Source of the DNA: Gammaproteobacteria bacterium
Lineage (GTDB): Bacteria; Pseudomonadota; Gammaproteobacteria; Steroidobacterales; GCA-2729495
Assembly: GCA_037387125.1 (NCBI GenBank)
Contig: JARRLL010000012.1
Coordinates: 63,369-73,830, forward strand
Reading direction: 5' to 3'
DNA length: 10,462 nt
Under the pieces are notes generated by a model. The model had not been told where the DNA came from, did no database searches, and saw only the letters and a program-made list of their open reading frames with translations. Below are positions 1,576 to 10,462 of this stretch, in pieces. The number at the start of each line of letters is the position of its first letter. Position 1 is the stretch's first letter. A program made the position numbers and the translations under genes.

Positions 1576-1636
1576 TTCACGGGTGGATTCGAACCACGGG
1601 CTTACGCCCTTCCCATTGGATCAACTTAGCAGGTTG
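1576..1636 (-). pseudogene. tRNA-like remnant (T-arm GGTTCGAATCC consensus plus short hairpins, no recognisable anticodon arm)
   Basis: The reverse complement reads AAGTTGATCCAATGGGAAGGGCGTAAGCCCGTGGTTCGAATCCACCCGTGAATGACGG. It has a canonical T-loop but no D or anticodon arm that I can fold, and it is followed by a 7-bp hairpin (CGAATGAcggtTCATTCG). Confidence 0.3.
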
Positions 1637-1709
1637 ATGGAAACGCAGGAGTCGAACCTGCGACCGACAGATTCATGGTCTGTTGCTCTACCCTCTGAGC
1701 TAGATTCCA
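1637..1709 (-). tRNA. noncanonical tRNA; anticodon loop CCAUGAA (C33; formal anticodon AUG, possibly Met/Ile-like CAU shifted); no encoded CCA (trailer U-CAA)
   Basis: rc = TGGAATC TA GCTC AGAGGGTA GAGC A ACAGA CCATGAA TCTGT CGGTC GCAGG TTCGACT CCTGC GTTTCCA T. The acceptor pairs 6/7, and the D, anticodon and T stems are perfect. Position 33 is C and position 34 is A. Confidence 0.5.
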
Positions 1710-1925
1710 GTGGAGTTGGGTTTTACGAGCCGCTCGACACACACCGTGCGATGGATAGCGTTGGTGCGCCGGCCGGGTATACAGAACCCGCACCGCTGAA
1801 CGTCGTTCTGGCCCCAACCTTGGTTGACAATGCCGGGCATCAGGCACCGGCGTTGCCGTCCAGCCACGCTGACACGTTGCTGGTAAAACGGGACTCTGGA
1901 TGTCTGTCACGGACTACTCGATAAC

Positions 1926-2001
1926 TGGCGCGGCCCGAGGGATTCGAACCCCCATCTGCGACGTACGCACTGTCGTGCTCTTCCACTTAAGCTAGAACCG
2001 C
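1926..2001 (-). tRNA. tRNA, anticodon loop GUGCGUA -> GCG (Arg-like), CCA encoded; 31-39 A.C mismatch, U37
   Basis: rc = GCGGTTC TA GCTT AAGTGGAA GAGC A CGACA GTGCGTA CGTCG CAGAT GGGGG TTCGAAT CCCTC GGGCCGC G CCA. The acceptor has two G-U pairs. Confidence 0.5.
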
Positions 2002-2008
2002 ATAAAAC

Positions 2009-2084
2009 TGGCGCGACCCGAGGGATTTGAACCCCCATCTTCTGCCCTACCACGGCCTTGCTCTGCCAGTTGAGCTAGAGTCGC
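2009..2084 (-). tRNA. tRNA, anticodon loop GUGGUAG -> GGU (Thr-like), CCA encoded; anticodon stem only 3 WC pairs plus tandem A.G/G.A
   Basis: rc = GCGACTC TA GCTC AACTGGCA GAGC A AGGCC GTGGTAG GGCAG AAGAT GGGGG TTCAAAT CCCTC GGGTCGC G CCA. The T-arm and acceptor are nearly identical to the neighbouring tRNA at 1926-2001, suggesting tandem duplication with a diverged anticodon region. Confidence 0.5.
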
Positions 2085-2089
2085 ATTGA

Positions 2090-2160
2090 CAACCCGGGAC
2101 GGATTCGAACCGTCGTCTTCACTTCTGGAAGGTGACGTTCTGCCACTGAACTACCGGGAT
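2090..2160 (-). tRNA. tRNA-Trp (anticodon CCA); no encoded 3' CCA (trailer G-UCAA)
   Basis: rc = ATCCCGG TA GTTC AGTGGCA GAAC G TCACC TTCCAGA AGTGA AGAC GACGG TTCGAAT CCGTC CCGGGTT G. The D and T stems are perfect. The anticodon loop has U33 and CCA. There is a 31-39 C.A mismatch and a 2-71 U.U mismatch. Confidence 0.65.
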
Positions 2161-2177
2161 TCTGTTTCAAGAAATCG

Positions 2178-2261
2178 CATCCCGGGACGGAGTCGAACCG
2201 TGGTCTGCGCGTTCGGAAGTTACTGTTCGCAAGCACTATTCTGCCATTGAACTTTCGGAAC
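2178..2261 (-). pseudogene. 84-nt tRNA-like element related to the adjacent tRNA-Trp (same D-arm and T-arm/acceptor) with a disrupted or expanded anticodon region; pseudogene or unusual class-II-length tRNA
   Basis: rc = GTTCCGA AA GTTC AATGGCA GAAT A GTGCTTGCGAACAGTAAC TTCCGAA CGCGCAGAC CACGG TTCGACT CCGTC CCGGGAT G. The 5' acceptor strand does not pair with the 3' strand. It retains a TTCCGAA motif resembling the Trp anticodon loop TTCCAGA. I could not fold a canonical anticodon arm. Confidence 0.35.
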
Positions 2262-2319
2262 ATGGAAACAGGTAACGCCTGCGGCGTTCGTTACTTGCGT
2301 GTTTAAGTACACGCAAATT

Positions 2320-2394
2320 TGGTGGACCGTGAAGGACTTGAACCTTCATCTCGCCGGGTAAGAGCCGGGTGCTCTGCCATTAAGCTAACGATCC
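2320..2394 (-). tRNA. tRNA-Lys (anticodon CUU), CCA encoded
   Basis: rc = GGATCGT TA GCTT AATGGCA GAGC A CCCGG CTCTTAC CCGGG CGAGAT GAAGG TTCAAGT CCTTC ACGGTCC A CCA. All stems are canonical and U33 and A37 are present. Confidence 0.8.
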
Positions 2395-2400
2395 GTAATA

Positions 2401-2480
2401 TGGTTGAGGTAAACGACGAGAGTCGAACTCGTATCATCCGGGGTCACCTCCCGGGGTCTTGCCGTTAGACCACGTTTACC
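2401..2480 (-). tRNA. tRNA-His (anticodon GUG) with G-1:C73; anticodon loop AGGUGAC has G33; 3' end reads C73-UCAACCA
   Basis: rc = G GTAAACG TG GTCT AACGGCA AGAC C CCGGG AGGTGAC CCCGG ATGAT ACGAG TTCGACT CTCGT CGTTTAC C TCAACCA. The 8-bp acceptor with the extra 5' G is the His identity element. Four extra nucleotides (UCAA) lie between C73 and the CCA. Confidence 0.7.
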
Positions 2481-2482
2481 AT

Positions 2483-2558
2483 TGGTGCCTTGCATGAGAC
2501 TCGAACTCACATCTGTGGAGTGGCGCTCCACTGCTCTACCGCTTTGAACTAACAAGGC
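2483..2558 (-). tRNA. tRNA-Gly-like (anticodon GCC) with C33 instead of U33, CCA encoded
   Basis: rc = GCCTTGT TA GTTC AAAGCGGTA GAGC A GTGGA GCGCCAC TCCAC AGAT GTGAG TTCGAGT CTCAT GCAAGGC A CCA. Confidence 0.6.
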
Positions 2559-2575
2559 ATGTACATCAACGATTA

Positions 2576-2649
2576 TCAGGGCGGCTGGATTCGAACCAGC
2601 GGCTTCACGGATCCGGGCCGCGCGCTCTGCCAGACTGAGCTACACCCTG
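2576..2649 (-). tRNA. tRNA-Pro-like (anticodon CGG) with C33, no encoded CCA
   Basis: rc = CAGGGTG TA GCTC AGTCTGGCA GAGC G CGCGG CCCGGAT CCGTG AAGCC GCTGG TTCGAAT CCAGC CGCCCTG A. The D and T stems are perfect, and the anticodon stem has one G-U pair. Confidence 0.6.
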
Positions 2650-2657
2650 TTTGAATA

Positions 2658-2723
2658 TGGAGGTAATCGGAATCGAACCGATCTGCTCTGGCATGCAAAA
2701 CCGCTGCTTTCCCAGAAACCCCC
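2658..2723 (-). pseudogene. truncated tRNA-like element: acceptor stem plus perfect T-arm (ATCGG TTCGATT CCGAT) but no D-arm and no canonical anticodon arm; no CCA
   Basis: rc = GGGGGTT TC TGGGAAAGCAGCGGTTTTGCATGCCAGAGCAG ATCGG TTCGATT CCGAT TACCTCC A. Only a TCTGG/CCAGA 5-bp stem enclosing 20 nt could be drawn in the middle. Confidence 0.4.
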
Positions 2724-2725
2724 GT

Positions 2726-3005
2726 AAAGAATACGCGCCGCTATCGCGGCTTCTTAATTTGCGAGTACAAATACTCGCTTTCTGCCTCCGGCGGTGCTCT
2801 GCACGCCTTCACTCGCTAGCGCGCGTGAAGAGTTCCGAGCATGAGTGCCGCTATCGCGGCGTCTCAATTTGCGAGTAGAAATACTCGCAACTCTGCGCTT
2901 CACTTGGTGCTCTGCGCGCCTGCAATCGCTAATGCGATCGCAGAGCTCCGAGCATGTGAAACGCCTGCGGCGTTCATTATTTGCGAGTACAAATACTCGC
3001 AAATT
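2726..3005 (-). repeat. 2.5 tandem ~115-bp units, each ending in a small hairpin (GCCGC-TAT-CGCGGC or AACGCC-TGC-GGCGTT) plus a 22-26-bp perfect palindrome ATTTGCGAGTA-NAAA-TACTCGCAAAT
   Basis: Unit boundaries are marked by GAG(T/C)TCCGAGCATG at 2831-2844 and 2944-2957. The palindromes are at 2757-2778, 2866-2890 and 2979-3004, with a degenerate copy at 2295-2316 directly 3' of tRNA-Lys and another at about 6577-6603. The units contain GCAGAGCAC-type D-arm-like remnants, so they may be decayed tRNA genes that kept their 3' hairpin module. Confidence 0.6.
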
Positions 3006-3125
3006 TGGCTCCGGTCGCAGGGCTCGAACCTGCATCTGACCGATTAACAATCGGGAACTCTGAGATATCGAAACTTCGCCTCCTGGTCTTCAACCAGGCG
3101 CTCTGCCGTCTGAGCTACCGATACA
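3006..3125 (-). pseudogene. chimeric tRNA locus: 5' half of a tRNA-Phe (GAA) joined by a 26-nt linker to the 3' two-thirds of a tRNA-Asn (GUU) ending in CCA
   Basis: rc = GTATCGG TA GCTC AGACGGCA GAGC G CCTGG TTGAAGA CCAGG | AGGCGAAGTTTCGATATCTCAGAGTT | CCCGA TTGTTAA TCGGT CAGAT GCAGG TTCGAGC CCTGC GACCGGA G CCA. The 5' Phe acceptor (GTATCGG) is not complementary to the 3' acceptor (GACCGGA). Confidence 0.45.
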
Positions 3126-3276
3126 TTGGGCGGCGTTAACCACCAGCCCAGCGGGCAGCGCGTCGTCGCAAACGCACCTTGGCCTTGGCCTGCACGCCGG
3201 AACGCGCTGCCCGCATCGAGTAATCCGCATTGTTAAAGAACGCAAAAACAGTTCGCTACAACGCGTTCGACCGGGC

Positions 3277-3312
3277 ATAAAAAAACCCCGGTTGAACGAA
3301 ATCCAACCGGGG
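3277..3312 (-). terminator. rho-independent terminator on the minus strand (9-bp stem CCCCGGTTG/CAACCGGGG, 9-nt loop, then T7 on minus)
   Basis: Plus strand reads aaaaaaa-ccccggttg-aacgaaatc-caaccgggg. Confidence 0.6.
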
Positions 3313-3530
3313 CTATGTCCCTGGTCGGAAGGCTTGTTGCAGCAGCCTTCCGACATGTATTCGAAAGGCTAGGTAATCAATCCACTATGCTCGTAATTCA
3401 TTTCTTCAGGCCGAGCGTCGCCGTTGTCGCCGACCGGATTATTGGCCTGGCAAACGTTCGCCGCTTCACTACCTACGTAAGGCACCGGCCTATGTCGGCC
3501 CGCACTCACGCATTGGTTAAGCAAAATATT
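3277..3530 (-). ncRNA. candidate small RNA ending at a double hairpin (11-bp hairpin 3324-3354 followed by the intrinsic terminator 3277-3312); AT-rich promoter-like region upstream at 3520-3650
   Basis: No ORF longer than 10 codons on the minus strand here. The two adjacent strong hairpins plus U-run are typical of sRNA 3' ends. The AT-rich stretch (gcaaaatattttttgcacatatattcataa...) would supply the promoter. Only the 3' end is well defined. Confidence 0.25.
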
Positions 3531-3797
3531 TTTTGCACATATATTCATAAGGGCGCGGACTTTACTCCTCTACTTTTAAGTAGTCAAAGAAATATTTGTT
3601 ATAAGAACGTTCAGGCAAACAATAAAAACGGGCGAGAAAAAAACAGGAATCAAACTGTGCGCTTTCACCTGCGCTGATCGTCGATCACCTATCGGATCGC
3701 GACGGGTCCGCGAGAAGGCCAGAAAGTCTTCACCCTGCAAACGCTGCCGGTCAGCACCAGCTGGCCGGTGGGTGATTAGACGTTTGCTATCCGCACC

Positions 3798-3943
3798 CAA
3801 TGCGGCGGCCGGCTGCGCGTCATCGCCAGCATCGAATCGCCGGCGGTCATCGAGCGGATTCTCAAGCACCTTGGCCGGGAGGCCGTGCCGGTCGATCCTG
3901 CGCATCCGAGCCGGGCACCGCCCCGGTCAGATCGGCTGATCTG
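3798..3943 (+). pseudogene. C-terminal remnant (~48 codons) of an IS91-family transposase gene
   Basis: The frame opens just after an in-frame stop at the left edge of the repeat and ends at TGA 3941-3943. There is no upstream coding continuation. Confidence 0.45.
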
Positions 3944-4188
3944 ATTCTCTCGCCGATGCCCACGCCGCCCGGCCCCCGCGCCGGGAGGTGCGTGTGTTGA
4001 CCGGCGGCTTTGCCGGTTGGCATTTCCGGGTGAAAGGGGAAGATTCACGGACCCAACGACGTCGCCCGGGTGAGGCTCCGCCTGCATCGCGGCGTTCAAC
4101 CTGCCATCAACACCCCGATTGCAACATGCCTCTACCAATTCGAGTGAATCGGCTGCTCAAACATAGGTGGCTTATACTTCCTATTCGC
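3798..4188 (+). mobile_element. copy 1 of a ~390-bp IS91/ISCR-like 3'-end (oriIS-side) remnant: transposase C-terminal tail plus conserved non-coding region ending AACATAGGTGGCTTATACTTCCTATTCGC
   Basis: About 90% identical to 6819-7187, with a 26-bp insertion at about 4046-4071. The frame reads CGGRLRVIASIESPAVIERILKHLGREAVPVDPAHPSRAPPRSDRLI*, a C-terminal motif I recall from IS91-family HUH-Y2 transposases. The terminus (A)AACTTCCTAT(T)C matches the oriIS consensus of IS91/IS801/IS1294/ISCR as I remember it. Confidence 0.55.
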
Positions 4189-4212
4189 GATAGTCACAAT
4201 GCAGGTCTTGAT

Positions 4213-4256
4213 GTAGCCCAGCATCGGGCAGCGGATGCTGGGCTACGTTGTTTTTA
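4213..4256 (+). terminator. intrinsic terminator, plus-strand orientation (13-bp stem GTAGCCCAGCATC/GATGCTGGGCTAC, loop GGGCAGCG, then GTTGTTTTTAT)
   Basis: Perfect 13-bp inverted repeat followed by a T-run. It abuts the stop codon of the minus-strand lipoprotein gene (4257-4259), so the hairpin may also stabilise that transcript's 3' end. Confidence 0.55.
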
Positions 4257-5123
4257 TCACTGATTGCGGAAGGCTTCGATCGAGAAGATGACACTGCCGC
4301 TATCGATTTGGAAAAATATGGAATCCCGTTCTTGCGGTTTTTCGTCAATATAGATTAGCCCGCCGTATGCGCCGCCCAAGCTCGGGCCACAGTTTTCCGA
4401 GCTGAGTTCGACGCTCATATTGTAAAGATTCCTGTCGGAGCTACCCTCGATGTCGCTTATAGAGCCGGTCCACGTGCAGGCGCTGCCAGTTGAATCGAGT
4501 AAGTCGCCATTAAACGTGCCATCCGGGTTAAAGGTCAGAGTCACGCCTTGACCTGGAACCTGGCTATTCCAGATTCCAGAGAAGTCTTCTATTGCAGTGT
4601 TTCTATCGTAAAGCGGGTTGAAAAGTGTTTCGAACACGATTATATCCGGCTCCTGGTCGGCATCGTCTCCATCGTCGCATACGAACGAGCCTTGCAGTGC
4701 CGACTTTTCATCAAACTTTCCTTCCTCCGTTCGTTTATCAAAAGTGCCATCAACAGCGCAGTTGCTGGTAACTATGTCATCACCGATAGAAAAATCTTGC
4801 GAAGTGAAACGCGTGACGTCACCTGAAAGCTCAAGCCCTAAAACATCTGTGGAAGCTCCGCCCGACGCCTGAACTGAGTACTGCAGAGTAAAGACTCGCA
4901 TTTCCCCGGTATCTCCGATAATCGGTTCGGTCGTCAGAATGATGACGTTCTGATCTGTAGCGGAGTTGCCATCGGTCAGCGTGCCGTCCCAGATTCCACC
5001 CAATTGTATATCTGTCGGTGGTTGGTCTTTGCCAGGGCCATCGAAACCGCTATCACTGCCACCGCCGCAGGAGGCTAATGCGGCCGCAACTGCGGCAGAC
5101 AGCGCTGTATTTCTCTTAATCAT
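4257..5123 (-). CDS. hypothetical lipoprotein (signal peptide with lipobox LASC)
   Basis: The N-terminus MIKRNTALSAAVAAALASCGGG is a classic SPII lipobox. The mature part is rich in D/G/S/T. GC content is clearly lower than in the flanking DNA. No family is recognised. Confidence 0.7.
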   Translation of the reverse strand: MIKRNTALSAAVAAALASCGGGSDSGFDGPGKDQPPTDIQLGGIWDGTLTDGNSATDQNVIILTTEPIIGDTGEMRVFTLQYSVQASGGASTDVLGLELSGDVTRFTSQDFSIGDDIVTSNCAVDGTFDKRTEEGKFDEKSALQGSFVCDDGDDADQEPDIIVFETLFNPLYDRNTAIEDFSGIWNSQVPGQGVTLTFNPDGTFNGDLLDSTGSACTWTGSISDIEGSSDRNLYNMSVELSSENCGPSLGGAYGGLIYIDEKPQERDSIFFQIDSGSVIFSIEAFRNQ

Positions 5124-5268
5124 GAGGCTAATTCTATCGTATCGCTGTTATTTCTTTATTCTAACCGGTTCAAAATATGGTTATCTGGAATCTGACATAA
5201 GCAGACCTTCCGGCCGCTATACTGTAGACAGGTATTGTGCCAACACATTTGTTGGCGGGAGAGGGGCG
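5124..5268. promoter_or_regulatory. AT-rich divergent intergenic region between the lipoprotein gene (minus) and the 2TM gene (plus); presumed divergent promoters
   Basis: 145 bp, AT-rich (ttatttctttattctaacc...). GGAGAGGGG sits 6 nt before the ATG at 5269. Confidence 0.3.
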
Positions 5269-5547
5269 ATGACTGAGGTGGACACCAAGCAATTAACTGA
5301 TGCTTACAAAAAGGTTCTCAAAAAGGAGAAGTTCAAGGCCTTTTACATCCATCTGGCAGCATATTTAATTGTCAACACGGCACTATTTATTACCAATATC
5401 GAAACTAACCCCACTGTATTTTGGGGTTGTTTCCTCGGCTGGGGGTCGGGCGTTCTAGCAATTGTGGTCTTCAAGATTTTGCCTATGGACAAGCAGCTCG
5501 AAGAGCAGCGTATCGAAGTCGAGGCGATGGCAGCTGGTTATGAATAG
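5269..5547 (+). CDS. small membrane protein with 2TM domain (two TM helices; FYIHL...N...W...GWG motif)
   Basis: MTEVDTKQLTDAYKKVLKKEKFKAFYIHLAAYLIVNTALFITNIETNPTVFWGCFLGWGSGVLAIVVFKILPMDKQLEEQRIEVEAMAAGYE. It has a strong RBS. The ORF-track entry 4966..5547 carries an N-terminal extension antisense to the lipoprotein gene, which I reject. Confidence 0.7.
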   Translation: MTEVDTKQLTDAYKKVLKKEKFKAFYIHLAAYLIVNTALFITNIETNPTVFWGCFLGWGSGVLAIVVFKILPMDKQLEEQRIEVEAMAAGYE

Positions 5548-5729
5548 GTGCGGGGGTTGTGCGCTAAGGACGCTGTAATCTGCAACCTAATGACTAGGGG
5601 TGCTCTAAGGTGCCTCTGTGGTTCGGCTAATCTGAAGGCCTGTCGGAATGTCTTGGGCCAGGGGCTTGCTCGGGAGTTGGCCCTGAGCCGGCAATCGAAA
5701 ACAACTGCGCAGGATAAATTCAGAATGAC

Positions 5730-6557
5730 ATGCTGAAAATTTTCTTCGTCGTCGCTGCCTGTTACATTTTGCTAGCCGCTGTCGTGTATTTTGCGCAGGC
5801 TCGTATACTTTACCTTCCAGACCTGCCCGGGCGAGCGCTGACCGCGACGCCGGCTGATGTCGGGATGGACTATGAAGACGTCTTCATCGAAACAACTGAT
5901 GGAGTGATGCTGCACGGCTGGTTTATCAAGGGTCATTCGTCTCAGGTGCTGCTGTTCTTTCACGGCAATGCAGGAAACATCTCACATCGTCTTGACTCAA
6001 TACGGCAGTTTCAAGAACTGGGTTTGTCAGTATTGATTCTTGATTATCGGGGTTACGGTCGGAGCGATGGCCGAACTACCGAAAGGGGGGTCTATCGCGA
6101 TGCAGATGCAGCGTGGCAATATCTCATCGTGGATCGCGGTTTAGCGGCCAGCGATATTATTGTTTTCGGACGTTCCTTGGGAGGCTCGGTCGCAGCGCGG
6201 CTAGCCGGCTTGCAACAACCACTGGGGCTAATCGTAGAATCGTCGTTCACGTCCGTCCCTGACATTGCTCAGGACCTCTATCCATGGCTCCCCGTGCGCT
6301 GGTTGAGTCGCCTTCGTCACGCGACAGGTGAATACGTGCGGGACGTCAAATGCCCCATACTTGTCATTCATAGCCGCGACGACGAGATAATCGCGTTTCG
6401 CCATGGCGAAGCAATCTTTGCAGCGGCGAACGAGCCTCGTACCCTGCTGGCGATTTGGGGCACTCATAACGACGCATTCTTGAGTGATGCGCGTGCCTAT
6501 CTTGACGGACTTCGAGCATTTTTGACTGGACTGAGCGCGCCCGCTTTGACTCGTTAG
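5730..6557 (+). CDS. membrane-anchored alpha/beta hydrolase (BEM46/ABHD-like; HGNAGN motif, nucleophile elbow GRSLGG, Asp in HSRDDEII, His in GTHND)
   Basis: The 275-aa ORF has an N-terminal TM helix (IFFVVAACYILLAAVVYF) and the ordered catalytic triad motifs of alpha/beta hydrolases. Confidence 0.85.
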   Translation: MLKIFFVVAACYILLAAVVYFAQARILYLPDLPGRALTATPADVGMDYEDVFIETTDGVMLHGWFIKGHSSQVLLFFHGNAGNISHRLDSIRQFQELGLSVLILDYRGYGRSDGRTTERGVYRDADAAWQYLIVDRGLAASDIIVFGRSLGGSVAARLAGLQQPLGLIVESSFTSVPDIAQDLYPWLPVRWLSRLRHATGEYVRDVKCPILVIHSRDDEIIAFRHGEAIFAAANEPRTLLAIWGTHNDAFLSDARAYLDGLRAFLTGLSAPALTR

Positions 6558-6748
6558 TGCGGTTCTGGGTGGCGGAATTTGCGAGTATTCGGATACACTA
6601 TTAAGGCGCCGCACAGCAACGCAAGACCAGCGGAAGGATTGACTCAATCGCTGCCGCTAAACGCGTGTGTCGCTTCGTGAACCTCCTGACTTACTCGGAT
6701 CGACCGACAGGTTCGAACCAAGACCTCCTAGAGTTCGACAAATAAAAA

Positions 6749-6776
6749 GGGCCAGCCTAAATCGGCTGACCCTGTT
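6749..6776 (+). other. hairpin (GGGCCAGCC-taaatc-GGCTGACCC) preceded by AAATAAAAA and followed by TGTT; possible weak terminator for the hydrolase gene
   Basis: Inverted repeat with one mismatch, lying 190 bp after the hydrolase stop. Confidence 0.3.
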
Positions 6777-6818
6777 AGTCGCATGACTGGTTTGCGCGAC
6801 CCTTAGACTCGCGAGCCG

Positions 6819-6966
6819 CCAATGCGGCGGCCGGCTGCGCGTCATCGCCAGCATCGAATCGCCGGCGGTCATTGAGCGGATTCTCAAGCACCTTGGCGGA
6901 GAGGCCGTGCCGGTCGATCCTGCGCATCCGAGCCGGGCACCGCCCCGGTCAGATCGGCTGATCTGA
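6819..6966 (+). pseudogene. C-terminal remnant of an IS91-family transposase gene (copy 2)
   Basis: Same frame as copy 1, with stop TGA at 6964-6966. The frame opens after a TGA within 40 nt upstream. Confidence 0.45.
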
Positions 6967-7187
6967 CTCCCTCGCCGATGCCCGCACCGCCCGGCCCCCG
7001 CGCCGGGACGGGCGCGTGTTGCCCGCCGGCTTTGCCTGTTGGCATTTCCGGGTGAAAGGGGAAGATTCACGGGCCGCCACCTGCATCGCGGCGTTCAACC
7101 TGCCATCAACACCCCGATTGCAACACGCCTCTACCGGTTCGATCGAGTCCGCTGCTCAAACAAAGGCAGCTTAAACTTCCTATTCGC
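6819..7187 (+). mobile_element. copy 2 of the IS91/ISCR-like 3'-end remnant (transposase tail ...CGGRLRVIASIESPAVIERILKHLGGEAVPVDPAHPSRAPPRSDRLI*, oriIS-like end AAACAAAGGCAGCTTAAACTTCCTATTCGC)
   Basis: See copy 1. It sits in the convergent gap between the hydrolase gene (plus) and the outer-membrane protein gene (minus). Confidence 0.55.
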
Positions 7188-7299
7188 CCCGGGTCAGACG
7201 GTTCAAGCCCTCTGCCGGTCACCCTGTAACAACGGGCCCTAATGGCGAGAACCTGGCTCGGACCGTGCATGCCTTCGGCTAGCCCGCTTCCGCCCCCGG

Positions 7300-8427
7300 T
7301 CAACCCGCAAACTCCCAGTTGATACCCAGCAGGACCAGCGTCTGGGTTGTCCGCAAGACATCGTCGGGCTCGTCGGCAAAACCCGCATCACCGCTGGAAC
7401 GGTCATGGCGCGCCTCGAACGTGCCGACGAGGCGTTGCGACCCTAGCAACAACTGGTACTTGACGGTTCCCGTCAGTCCGAGCAGCCTCTGCTGCCCCCC
7501 GGTAACCAGTCCGTCATCATCGAGGTGGAACTCGGGTCGCACCGCGAAGCTCAGTCGCTCGTTTGCCGCCCAGACCAGCCAGACCGCACCGGTCGTCCAC
7601 TGGAAGCGGGGCTGCCCAGGCTGGTCCGCCTGCTTTTCGGTGCCATAGTCGAGTGAAGCGGCCAACCGCCAGGGGCCGCGCTGCCATTCGACAATGGAAT
7701 TACTGAAAAACCGCCAGTACTCCAGATCGGTATTGTCCTGATCCGAGCCGTAATAGAGGTTTTGGATGAACTTCGCGTTGTCACTGAGCGAGAACCCGGC
7801 CGAGAAACCGAGGCTCGGTATGTCATTGGGATTCGTCAGGTAGTTATAGCCATTGACGAGGTAAAAACCGAGATCCACCGAATCACTGACATCCCAGAGC
7901 AATTCCCCGCCGAAAAGAAAATACGGCACGGTATCGCTCAGGTAGGCGCGCGTGTAGTTCGGGTTGTCGATCGAAAGATAGGATTCGTAGCCGATGTAGC
8001 TGTTGATCAGCCCGGCAGTGAGCCTGACTTTACCGTCGTTACCGAAAAGGTAAGACACGTTCGCCCGGTAAAGATGGCGCCAGTCATCCGCGTTAGCGAT
8101 TGGCTCGTTGGCTGCCGGCGGCGGCGACGTAACCAGGCGCTTCGAATCGTCGCCGGCTTGCAGGCCGAATTCGAAGCCCCAGCGTGAGCCTACATTAGCT
8201 TCGCGGGACAGGTTGAACATCGCCTCGTTCAGTTCCAACTGGTTAAGCGTCGCCGCGGACGATTTACCCTGCCAGTTGTCATCGGAGGGGTCGCGATTGC
8301 TGCCGACGTAGCCGACGTCGAGGTAGGCTCTAACCTGCAGCGGAACGTCATCGGCCGCCAGAACATCCCTGGAAAGCAACGCGACTAATCCAACTCGCAC
8401 GAACGAGTTGCGAAACTGTCTTGGCAT
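7300..8427 (-). CDS. outer-membrane beta-barrel protein (putative porin-like OMP), signal peptide ...LLSRDVLA|ADD
   Basis: The ORF track gives 7300..8436 with a GTG start; the ATG at MPRQFRNSFVRVGLVALLS is more likely. It has alternating amphipathic beta-strand character, many Y/G/N/D, and a C-terminal ...GINWEFAG with aromatic residues near the end. Confidence 0.7.
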   Translation of the reverse strand: MPRQFRNSFVRVGLVALLSRDVLAADDVPLQVRAYLDVGYVGSNRDPSDDNWQGKSSAATLNQLELNEAMFNLSREANVGSRWGFEFGLQAGDDSKRLVTSPPPAANEPIANADDWRHLYRANVSYLFGNDGKVRLTAGLINSYIGYESYLSIDNPNYTRAYLSDTVPYFLFGGELLWDVSDSVDLGFYLVNGYNYLTNPNDIPSLGFSAGFSLSDNAKFIQNLYYGSDQDNTDLEYWRFFSNSIVEWQRGPWRLAASLDYGTEKQADQPGQPRFQWTTGAVWLVWAANERLSFAVRPEFHLDDDGLVTGGQQRLLGLTGTVKYQLLLGSQRLVGTFEARHDRSSGDAGFADEPDDVLRTTQTLVLLGINWEFAG

Positions 8428-8584
8428 GCGTATCACTCTGTTGCGTCGCGCGTTGATTCTTCAATACAAACCCATACAGAGTATGCGGCGCATTACCGCA
8501 ACTATCCAGACTGCCCACAAGGCTCGCTGGCCACGGCCCACAAATTCGTCATGATGGGTTTTTTATTTGGCTGCACCAAATACG

Positions 8585-9523
8585 CTAGTGACACTCAGCG
8601 TCGCACTCCGAATCAAAAGCAGAGTCAGTTCCAGCGAACTGGGCTCCGCTGTTTGTTTCGCCGGTCAGGGTAAGCTCTGTGTCGGCGCAGCCGACGCCGG
8701 TGTCCCCGGTCAGGAAATGGAACTTGGCATCCAGGAAACCGTCGTTGTCAAAGTCGGTATTTAATTCAGTGGTCGATGACGGATCGAGGCCGGCACCAGC
8801 AGGCCCGAAACTTAAGGTGGAACCGACAATATTGCCAGCGACCAGGTTGACAGGGTCGCCCGCGCTGGTGGTTGAGGTGAATACGATCACCTCGATGACA
8901 TCATTGAGCCCGCCGGGAGCGGAGGCACTGCCGTCGTGATCCGGATGGACCGCCCGATTAGGCGCTGCCGTGTCGATATCGATCTCAGCGGGCAGTACGC
9001 CCGCCGGCGCCACAACGATATCGTCGAAGAAAAAGCCGGTCAGGCTATTGGTGTGCGCGACCAGAAACACCTCGACGTTGGTGAGGTTGGTCCAGCTACT
9101 GTCAAAATCCACGGTCAGCTCGCCAGGGATAGCGATGCCCTCGAAGTTGCTCGCATAAGTCACTAGCGAGGCCGTCTGATAAATATAGCCCCCGCCGTCA
9201 ATTTTGCCCCGGAACGTGATACCACCGACCGCGTAGACGGGCTGGTTGCCAATCAACCGTATCGACATCTGCTTCAACGTGAACGGATCCGTGTTGGTTT
9301 GGAACATATTGAACGAGTAATAACCGCTCAAGGCCCAGATTTGGTAATCCGGCGTGATGCCTAGCACGGTGGCATCACTGGTGGTAAACCGATAGCCACG
9401 ACTGTCGAATGACGCCGTGGTACCCGTCGAATCCTCGAAATCAATTACGGTATCGGCTGCGAAAGCAGGCGCAGACGCCAGGCAAACGCTGAGCAACCAT
9501 GACCGGTGCTTAAATATTGACAT
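8585..9523 (-). CDS. hypothetical secreted protein (SPI signal peptide MSIFKHRSWLLSVCLASAPAFA|AD), D/T/G-rich, C-terminal Cys cluster CADTE...SECDAECH
   Basis: 312-aa ORF, co-directional with and 150 bp upstream of the OMP gene (probable operon). No family is recognised by eye. Confidence 0.65.
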   Translation of the reverse strand: MSIFKHRSWLLSVCLASAPAFAADTVIDFEDSTGTTASFDSRGYRFTTSDATVLGITPDYQIWALSGYYSFNMFQTNTDPFTLKQMSIRLIGNQPVYAVGGITFRGKIDGGGYIYQTASLVTYASNFEGIAIPGELTVDFDSSWTNLTNVEVFLVAHTNSLTGFFFDDIVVAPAGVLPAEIDIDTAAPNRAVHPDHDGSASAPGGLNDVIEVIVFTSTTSAGDPVNLVAGNIVGSTLSFGPAGAGLDPSSTTELNTDFDNDGFLDAKFHFLTGDTGVGCADTELTLTGETNSGAQFAGTDSAFDSECDAECH

Positions 9524-9532
9524 GACAATCCC

Positions 9533-9737
9533 CCCGCACCGCTCTGGTGCCGCTTAAGGCCGCCGGGACGGGCGCGTGTTGACCGGCGGCTTTCCCGGTT
9601 GGCATTTCCGGGTGAAACGGGAAGGTTCACGGGCATCGCAGCGTTCAACCTGCCATCAAAACCCCGATTTTAACACGCCTCTACCGGTTCGATCGAGTCC
9701 GCTGCTCAAACAAAGGCAGCTTAAACTTCCTATTCGC
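9533..9737 (+). mobile_element. copy 3 (5'-truncated, ~205 bp) of the IS91/ISCR-like element: non-coding part plus oriIS-like end only
   Basis: Aligns to copy 2 from CCCGCACCGC onward and ends ...GCAGCTTAAACTTCCTATTCGC. It begins 10 nt upstream of the secreted-protein start codon (9523) and ends 24 nt before the ZnuA-like stop (9761). Confidence 0.5.
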
Positions 9738-9760
9738 CGCCTAGGCCGGTTGCAGCAGGA

Positions 9761-10462
9761 CTATGGCAGCGACCGATGAAGTCGTTCTACGTTATCGTGC
9801 ATCACGCTGAGGAAGTCGCCCTCTTCCGGAGCGTTCGCGACCGTCCGAAAAGGCACGCTGACGATGCCTGCCTTGGCGAGGCCGATTCGTGTTTCTTCCA
9901 GCGGCTCAGACTCCCAGACCATGATCGTCGCCGGGTGCGTGACGAGTATCTGTTGCAATTCAATCCAGTCAAATGTCGAGGGTGCCTCGTCCGTTTCCCA
10001 GTGCACACTCTCGCCGTTAATACCGTAGCGACTCTCGAGATACTGGTACACGGGATGCGAGAACAGGACAGGCCTACCATCGAGCTGTGCGAATGCATCC
10101 GCAAGGCGCGCATCGAGTTCAGTAAGCTCCCGCTCCAGGTTTGCAAGGTTGTCACGGAACCGCGTTTCGCCCGCTGGTACCAGATCGATAAGTAAGTTGG
10201 CGAGGACCCTGGCCTGCGCAATGGCAATCTGTGGGTCCAGCCAGGTCGTGAAGGCGGTCCGCTGGTGAGAGTGCTCACCCTCCGGGCCGTGCTGATGCTG
10301 GACAGAATCGTCGAGCGGAATGAGTCTGTCCACGACAATAGCTGACGTATCAACAAGGCGACGCCGATCGAGCGAAATCATGTTGAGCCAGGACTCAGCG
10401 CCGGCGCCGTTGAGTAAAATGACGTCGGCCGACTGCAAGAGCTGAACCTGTTCCTCACTCGG
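9761..10462 (-). CDS. znuA: metal (Zn/Mn) ABC transporter substrate-binding protein, ZnuA/TroA family; 5'-partial (N-terminus beyond window)
   Basis: His-rich loop (HQHGPEGEHSHQ), a W-L-D-P motif (TAFTTWLDPQIAIA), and VLFSHPVYQYLESRYGI matching the ZnuA FVFHDAYGYF region. The frame stays open to the window edge. Confidence 0.8.
   Translation of the reverse strand, partial: PSEEQVQLLQSADVILLNGAGAESWLNMISLDRRRLVDTSAIVVDRLIPLDDSVQHQHGPEGEHSHQRTAFTTWLDPQIAIAQARVLANLLIDLVPAGETRFRDNLANLERELTELDARLADAFAQLDGRPVLFSHPVYQYLESRYGINGESVHWETDEAPSTFDWIELQQILVTHPATIMVWESEPLEETRIGLAKAGIVSVPFRTVANAPEEGDFLSVMHDNVERLHRSLP

Follow-up and report, generated by a model that had tools for sequence, protein, structure and literature searches.

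A 10,462-nt stretch of DNA from the Gammaproteobacteria bacterium assembly GCA_037387125.1 (contig JARRLL010000012.1, positions 63,369 to 73,830 of the forward strand; hereafter the window) carries three direct repeats that, judged from their sequence, are almost certainly decayed, 5′-truncated, non-autonomous copies of an unnamed element of the ISCR group, within the IS91 superfamily of insertion sequences (IS) that encode HUH rolling-circle transposases. Rolling-circle transposition starts at the oriIS end of such an element and runs through the transposase gene towards the terIS end (PMC13181058, PMC5714925). Each copy in the window retains a complete oriIS end but lacks terIS, together with the greater part or the whole of the transposase gene. 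In the account that we favor, the truncated copies would have arisen by rolling-circle copying that stopped early, and two of them would be plain insertions into the spacers of a gene unit that was already in place; we give this account as a whole (identity of the element, abortive copying and insertion) a probability of roughly 0.55.

A repeat finder and alignments placed the copies, all on the same strand, at 3797–4188 (copy A), 6815–7187 (copy B) and 9561–9737 (copy C), with oriIS termini at 4188, 7187 and 9737 and the terminus string …CTATTCGC. Segment-wise identity among the three ranges from 84 to 96%. Copies A and B are 92.7% identical overall at aligned positions (96.2%, 90.5% and 89.1% over successive segments of 182, 74 and 110 nt, the second and third of which are separated by a 23-nt indel), while copy C, over two shared segments, is 91.9% and 94.5% identical to copy B and 90.5% and 83.6% identical to copy A. 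The original prediction, made from the letters of the window alone, had correctly described three co-oriented copies, but copy C starts at 9561 rather than 9533 and copy A extends further left, to 3668. It also had every copy begin with a transposase tail, which is true of A and B but not of copy C, which lies wholly 3′ of the stop codon; the terminal string that it quoted, GCAGCTTAAACTTCCTATTCGC, is present in B and C, but copy A reads GGTGGCTTATACTTCCTATTCGC instead.

Copy A is made up of separate parts. The first (3668–3766, plus strand) is an internal fragment of the transposase gene of about 30 codons (…SITYRIATGPREGQKVFTLQTLP…), identified by blastn, tblastn, nhmmer and alignment: it is 90% identical to positions 3460–3557 of a master copy in locus L009 (described below) by blastn, matches residues 5–34 of protein P0059 by tblastn, and corresponds to positions 865–949 of a nucleotide model of the element, an nhmmer profile of 1798 positions that was run over all fetched loci. 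It is followed at the junction of an internal deletion by a 31-nt filler (3767–3797, plus strand), which ends in GCTATCCGC and, in alignments, is unrelated to the master copy at that position. About 443 bp of the master (L009 3558–4000) have been lost in copy A between 3766 and 3798. The second part (3798–3944, plus strand), assigned from its translation and its identity to L009, comprises the final 48 transposase codons and the stop, and leads into a non-coding oriIS arm of 244 bp (3945–4188, plus strand) that ends in …AGGTGGCTTATACTTCCTATTCGC, as set by its sharp terminus and its match to ISCR1. Copy B, with a 5′ junction within GCCGCCAATG, comprises the final ~48 transposase codons and stop (6815–6966, plus strand; translation, nhmmer and alignment) and an aligned oriIS arm of 221 bp (6967–7187, plus strand), which is 23 nt shorter than that of copy A and ends in …AGGCAGCTTAAACTTCCTATTCGC. 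Copy C is an oriIS arm alone (9561–9737, plus strand), spanning model positions 1588–1797 by alignment and nhmmer. The tail peptide, CGGRLRVIASIESPAVIERILKHLG(R/G)EAVPVDPAHPSRAPPRSDRLI, is encoded by codons 3801–3941 in copy A and 6823–6963 in copy B, with stop codons at 3942–3944 and 6964–6966, respectively; in both copies a start codon is absent and an in-frame stop lies just upstream. The repeat finder detected no inverted repeat of the oriIS end in the window.

The 48-residue tail connects these repeats to the IS91 superfamily, as had been predicted: at 50% identity (E = 6e-6), it matches the C-terminal ends of transposases that are annotated as IS91-family in 2100 plasmid records. All 56 matches to the tail in a large protein collection were short orphan open reading frames (ORFs) of 32–84 residues. 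An exhaustive profile search returned 9085 representative proteins, the best of which were mostly fragments, along with some longer pieces; in the latter, as in P0059 and P0195, a Pfam Y2_Tnp domain lies directly upstream of the same tail. Scanning 185,579 species genomes (one per species) for the tail motif gave 58 loci, almost all from uncultured Gammaproteobacteria and Woeseiaceae, with at most three per chromosome-length record, and the repeat is therefore not the genome-wide, high-copy family that the original prediction had named as the alternative. Woeseiaceae and their relatives are thus among the hosts of the element, all of them uncultured Gammaproteobacteria from sediment.

A full-length master copy was found in a related uncultured gammaproteobacterium (L009, contig CALNYJ010000002.1), where an intact ORF of 491 residues (2672–4147) ends in a tail that is 98% identical to that in the window. 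From the tail through the element end, copy A shares 94.7% DNA identity with L009 4001–4393. The L009 ORF features both Zn_Tnp_IS91 (PF14319; 65.4 bits, cut-off 26.3) and Y2_Tnp (PF04986; 119.7 bits, cut-off 20.9). A further intact ORF is present in L026 and further full-length copies in L023 and L032, and in all four loci the same DNA runs into an intact transposase gene. Metagenomes contain dozens of clusters of intact relatives of 491–496 residues (73–87% identity), which indicates that the lineage is alive and that the window copies are its debris. A search of 72,556 plasmids with copy A DNA returned no matches, and the link to known elements is at the protein level only.

In an alignment with ISCR1 and ISVsa3, the L009 transposase displays the HUH motif (VHFHLL) and one tyrosine in RYVARP, and it is 61–63% identical to ISVsa3-family and 55.6% identical to ISCR1-family transposases at 95–98% query coverage. 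ISVsa3, which we take to be equivalent to ISCR2 and which is annotated at NCBI as ‘IS91-like element ISVsa3 family’, resembles the element over 95% of transposase length, in domain order, in the HUH motif, in the single tyrosine (RYISRP there, RYVARP here) and in the C-terminal tail CxxCGG…VIAxIE…ILxHL…RAPP that is common to both; its oriIS end, TTTATTCTTCCTATAC, lies 235 nt past the stop. The two differ by ~38% amino-acid divergence and in the terminus, which reads TATTCGC or TATCCGC here versus TATACGT there. Co-oriented full and truncated copies around cargo genes are typical of ISCR2 contexts; its hosts are clinical plasmids and integrative elements, whereas the element described here resides in uncultured sediment Gammaproteobacteria and is not associated with resistance genes. 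The likeness to ISCR1 spans 98% of the transposase and extends to the DNA terminus, where 25 of the final 28 nt of the master agree with the oriIS end of ISCR1 (AAAAAGGTGGTTTATACTTCCTATACCC versus AAAAAGGTGGCTTATACTTCCTATTCGC) and copy A is identical to the master over the last 24 nt.

The 3′ ends of the named elements were read from plasmid records for ISCR1 (L109), ISVsa3 (L108) and a third ISCR-type element (L073). All three finish in …TTTAT(A/T)CTTCCTATAC…, and the master and copy A in …GGCTTATACTTCCTATTCGC, in line with the resemblance to ISCR-type oriIS ends that the original prediction had pointed out. The distance from stop to terminus is 244 nt in copy A and the master, 221 nt in copy B, 235 nt in ISVsa3, 230 nt in the third element and 232 nt in ISCR1, the last figure agreeing with the published oriIS arm (PMC6218425). 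An oriIS end of the …TTTATACTTCCTATAC… type, ~230 nt past the stop, is present here as in the ISCR group. ISCR1 itself is bound to the 3′ conserved segment of class 1 integrons, and its outward promoters drive downstream genes (PMC6218425); in the window, by contrast, a scan of the arms detected no promoter-like site, and each copy is faced from its right by a convergent gene on the minus strand.

A sharp right end is common to 41 copies: similarity stops after …CTAT(C/T)CGC, and the flanks beyond are unrelated. The conserved end finishes CCGC or TCGC, and the next bases in the window are GATA, CCCG and CGCC. A GTTC/CTTG tetranucleotide adjoins oriIS in IS91, IS801 and IS1294 and is essential in IS91 (PMC13181058); the original prediction had proposed to look for it here, but it was absent at all 41 termini, where the following four bases were unrelated to one another. 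Given the ISCR-like ends and transposase and the lack of GTTC/CTTG, the element is best classified from its sequence as a new member of the ISCR group (~62% protein identity to ISCR2) rather than of the IS91 family proper. It shares with IS91, IS801 and IS1294 a rolling-circle transposase of the HUH type, with both Zn_Tnp_IS91 and Y2_Tnp, and a constant oriIS end opposite a variable one; its two ends also appear to be dissimilar and to lack inverted repeats, and no target-site duplication was seen in the junction flanks that were inspected. It departs from them in the missing target tetranucleotide, in the lack of orf121, and in the catalytic region: IS91 uses the tyrosines of a YxxxY motif (Y249 and Y253; PMC5714925), whereas RYVARPP here, with one tyrosine, stands where ISCR1 and ISVsa3 have RYISRPA, in an alignment confined to ISCR elements.

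Profiling of the fetched loci showed that left ends are spread over model positions 142 to 1623 while the right end is constant. At least 10 left junctions, as judged by eye, fall within ~25 nt around ACCTGCC (ATCGAGACCTGCC), just before CGG codons. They come from three sub-lineages with unrelated flanks, and include copy B and the second segment of copy A; in L019, L029 and L043 the left break is at exactly the same base. By our own estimate, made without a dedicated tool, fewer than one such junction (about 0.8) would be expected under uniform end points, and the copies with hotspot ends are only 85–91% alike. Fourteen loci contain at least two separate fragments, and all 17 of their 17 extra fragments are on the same strand. 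Neighboring copies in L013, L019 and L020 are 98.8–99.7% identical, and the pairs in L013 and L019 have different 5′ ends, although both members retain exact oriIS ends.

Since rolling-circle copying begins at oriIS, a constant right end combined with variable left ends is most simply read as early termination followed by reinsertion nearby. Copying would start at oriIS and halt early inside the element, often at a preferred site just ahead of the CGG codons; the resulting short copy would then reinsert nearby in the same orientation, each copy representing a separate oriIS-anchored event, with deletion and divergence afterwards. Early termination would then be the cause of the truncated copies.

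The positions of copies B and C bear on how they arrived. Copy C accounts for 177 of the 237 nt of spacer between the znuA stop codon (9761–9763) and the ATG (9523) of the next minus-strand gene, whose ribosome-binding site is intact beside the copy; removal of copy C would leave a spacer of 60 nt. Copy B separates the BBP2 porin stop codon (7300) from a minus-strand hairpin with a 10-bp stem and a T-run (6773–6748), which, by consensus match, is likely to be the porin terminator. Neither a terminator nor a promoter was predicted in the arms of B and C in a terminator and promoter scan. Because copy C leaves a ribosome-binding site intact within the znuA spacer and copy B separates the porin stop from its terminator, plain insertion is favored: both copies would be antisense insertions into the spacers of a pre-existing minus-strand unit encoding ZnuA, a secreted protein and the porin. 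This runs counter to the original prediction, in which the copies partitioned the accessory genes into modules gathered by serial ISCR-type capture.

A contig that overlaps the window (L067, JGI 3300056866), in which the window starts at position 4152, reveals a further copy to the left. Its gene order is smpB, an acyl-CoA dehydrogenase gene, ssrA (encoding transfer-messenger RNA, tmRNA; 1728–2089) and then, directly past ssrA, the 5′ two-thirds of a fourth ISCR copy (L067 2223–3149), which is on the same strand as the window copies and ends ~1 kb left of the window start. The earlier statement that no intact transposase gene (tnpA) is present is accurate for the window, but it did not extend to this partial gene outside it. 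The reading frame of the fourth copy breaks off into a PEP-CTERM-like tail, and is followed by a 159-residue ORF that also ends in a PEP-CTERM-like motif, and then by the window. Where the fourth copy overlaps the first piece of copy A, the two are only ~89% identical, so they represent two copies and not a single one that an insertion has interrupted. The window belongs to a variable region of accessory genes that starts just past ssrA and is littered with ISCR fragments.

Several points weigh against abortive copying and plain insertion. No ISCR element has been shown experimentally to transpose (PMC6218425), and terIS of this element is represented only by a candidate, a hairpin on the upstream side in L026 and L032. 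A peptide encoded just 3′ of the hotspot was the means by which most loci were found, which forces their 5′ ends upstream of it, and a small palindromic insert targets the hotspot position in other copies, where adjacent deletions could have made the hotspot. The porin terminator is a consensus match from a scan that found no more terminators than in shuffled sequence. A search for an empty site among related loci, which would have shown insertion directly, found none. The genes between the copies are patchy and rare, which would also fit imported DNA: the GC content is 0.47–0.50 over positions 4250–5750, which cover the lipoprotein and two-transmembrane (2TM) protein genes, compared with 0.55–0.65 on either side, and the 312-residue secreted protein encoded at 8585–9523 (minus strand) has only 11 homologues among 5.8 billion proteins.

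Such genes are what would be expected had each accessory block been imported together with an ISCR copy by one-ended rolling-circle transposition, with the three oriIS ends marking the borders of successive imported units and the transposase genes deleted later. We consider this history rather unlikely, although it has further points in its favor. Co-oriented arrays of full and truncated copies, one to three genes apart, recur in 14 related loci; the region begins at ssrA, a classic site for islands; the intervening genes are rare or occur in variable contexts; the 2.27-kb duplicated unit of L012 joins an ISCR 3′ part to 1.36 kb of adjoining DNA; and readthrough past terIS is documented at 1–14% for IS91 and IS1294 (PMC13181058). 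However, the accepted model mobilizes DNA from the terIS (upstream) side (PMC13181058, PMC5714925) and not, as the original prediction had it, DNA that follows oriIS. Captured units should therefore keep terIS and tnpA between cargo and oriIS, whereas the cargo here would be fused to the last 48 codons (copy B) or to non-coding DNA (copy C). In addition, the fusion point of copy B and of the second segment of copy A is the hotspot seen at unrelated loci, and B and C lie within the spacers of an apparently continuous minus-strand unit. Comparison of related loci, which had been suggested as a test for presence or absence of each module, yielded neither an empty site nor a transported module: relatives of the hydrolase gene (83–88% identity) have no neighbor in common with the window and hardly any among themselves, all contigs with an identical porin gene keep the same arrangement, and the few relatives of the secreted protein are found in other contexts, with no block attached to an ISCR end.

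Somewhat more doubtful is the idea that the left-end hotspot, upstream of ACCTGCCG…TGCGG, acts as an internal pseudo-terIS, where frequent termination frees a ~390-bp mini-element that reinserts. Tested in the manner of a miniature inverted-repeat transposable element (MITE), the copies share a common right end everywhere and at least 10 of their left ends fall within the ~25-nt hotspot, but the remaining copies begin at points scattered from model position 142 to 1623. If this idea were true, copy B, the second segment of copy A and the near-identical pairs would be natural products of ISCR transposition, and would show where termination is recognized.

Two simple rules for the copies were rejected as general ones. 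The presence of GCTATCCGC before the second segment of copy A and CCTTAGACTCGCGAGCCGC before copy B had suggested that left junctions are preceded by oriIS-like sequence, but a weight matrix built from 22 distinct termini gave a near-null result over 85 junctions, with only copy B standing out (p about 0.001 before correction). Likewise, a link between orientation and the direction of replication found no support: 28 loci had negative and 23 had positive GC skew in their flanks (p = 0.58), although skew over 8 kb is noisy. Separately, a palindromic insert of ~70–75 bp containing GGGCACAGGGA(C/T)GTGCCCG was observed at two different positions inside ISCR copies, one of which is the left-end hotspot (L011 ~880–960; L012 ~3930–4000 and ~6200–6270; L014 and L021; L008 ~7225–7290, L020 and L030). 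It looks like a small MITE-like or repetitive extragenic palindromic (REP)-like element in its own right.

A good deal less probable than capture or a pseudo-terIS is an origin of the three copies by local segmental duplication or unequal homologous recombination of a single ISCR remnant, followed by scrambling and without any transposition. Duplication of this kind does occur in the lineage, as L012 contains a 2.27-kb direct duplication (3775–5758 and 6045–8015, 95.6% identical) that consists of an ISCR 3′ part and 1.36 kb of downstream DNA. Exchange between copies is also conceivable, since 8 of the 10 differences between the window and L067 over 3063–10462 are concentrated in a single patch of copy A (3945–4043, about 100 bp), where L067 shares 98.6% identity with copy C; this patch would be due to gene conversion among copies within the population or else to cross-talk between repeats during assembly. 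It is also this patch that made copy C look like a mosaic of A and B, which it is not. In the window, however, nothing besides the element is repeated, the three copies have three distinct left junctions with unrelated flanks on both sides, and they diverge from one another by 4–16%.

Finally, an intergenic repeat unrelated to insertion sequences, such as a REP-like sequence or a structured RNA with a coincidental tail, might be suspected from the short orphan ORFs, of 43–84 residues, that make up most protein matches to the tail, but is ruled out for practical purposes by the identity to L009, the intact ORFs into which the same DNA continues and the match to ISCR ends. The oriIS arm gave no consensus base pairs across 20 copies, with folding energies mostly within the shuffled range, and only a short imperfect palindrome, ATAAGG…CCTTAT, recurs just before the terminus. 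The only Rfam matches in the window were to transfer RNAs (tRNAs), and five related loci gave none.

Further peculiarities were observed among the relatives of the element. In L023 (2685–2708), the terminal 12 nt of the oriIS end (GCACTATCCGCC) occur twice in tandem. Many metagenomic ‘hypothetical proteins’ of 50–80 residues are ISCR tails, and P0075, P0077 and P0199 are chimeric ORF calls in which a host gene (PKD domain, DUF1214 and a thiamine pyrophosphate (TPP) enzyme) reads in frame into or out of the tail. In one sub-lineage the copies are preceded by a conserved non-coding segment of ~450 nt (L026 1638–2079, L032 116–574 and L049 3085–3274), which in L049 adjoins a copy truncated at model position 1016. 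This segment shows no frame-specific conservation and no tmRNA, tRNA or Rfam match; a tmRNA had been considered and was discarded on checking. One possibility is that it forms an extended left arm of the element.

The surroundings of the copies hold several other features. A hairpin with a 17-bp stem and a T-run (4209–4250, plus strand; hairpin scan) is located 21 nt past the end of copy A, and lies outside the element because it is absent after the end of the master in L009. A distant relative of the secreted protein, P0206, is encoded beside a TonB-dependent receptor gene, and the next gene gave a faint CbiX hit, which hints at a role in metal uptake in keeping with the neighboring znuA. Positions 1636–3124 of the window (minus strand; L067 5787–7395) contain a dense tRNA array, in which ARAGORN calls eight tRNAs and Rfam adds one at 3064–3124. 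L067 has 11 tRNAs and is 120 bp longer at window position 3062/3063. Repeated hairpin units (families D5–D7) are interspersed in the array, which includes one tRNA-His with the unusual anticodon ATG.

For the window itself, these results mean that the repeats are ordinary mobile-DNA debris and are not to be annotated as genes. More broadly, ISCR elements are known mainly from clinical resistance plasmids, and the relatives described here constitute a diverse, apparently live lineage in uncultured sediment Gammaproteobacteria. This lineage leaves behind many oriIS-end fragments with a constant right end, co-oriented neighbors and clustered left ends, and these regularities provide a natural record from which the rules of initiation and termination may be read and which could guide a transposition assay.

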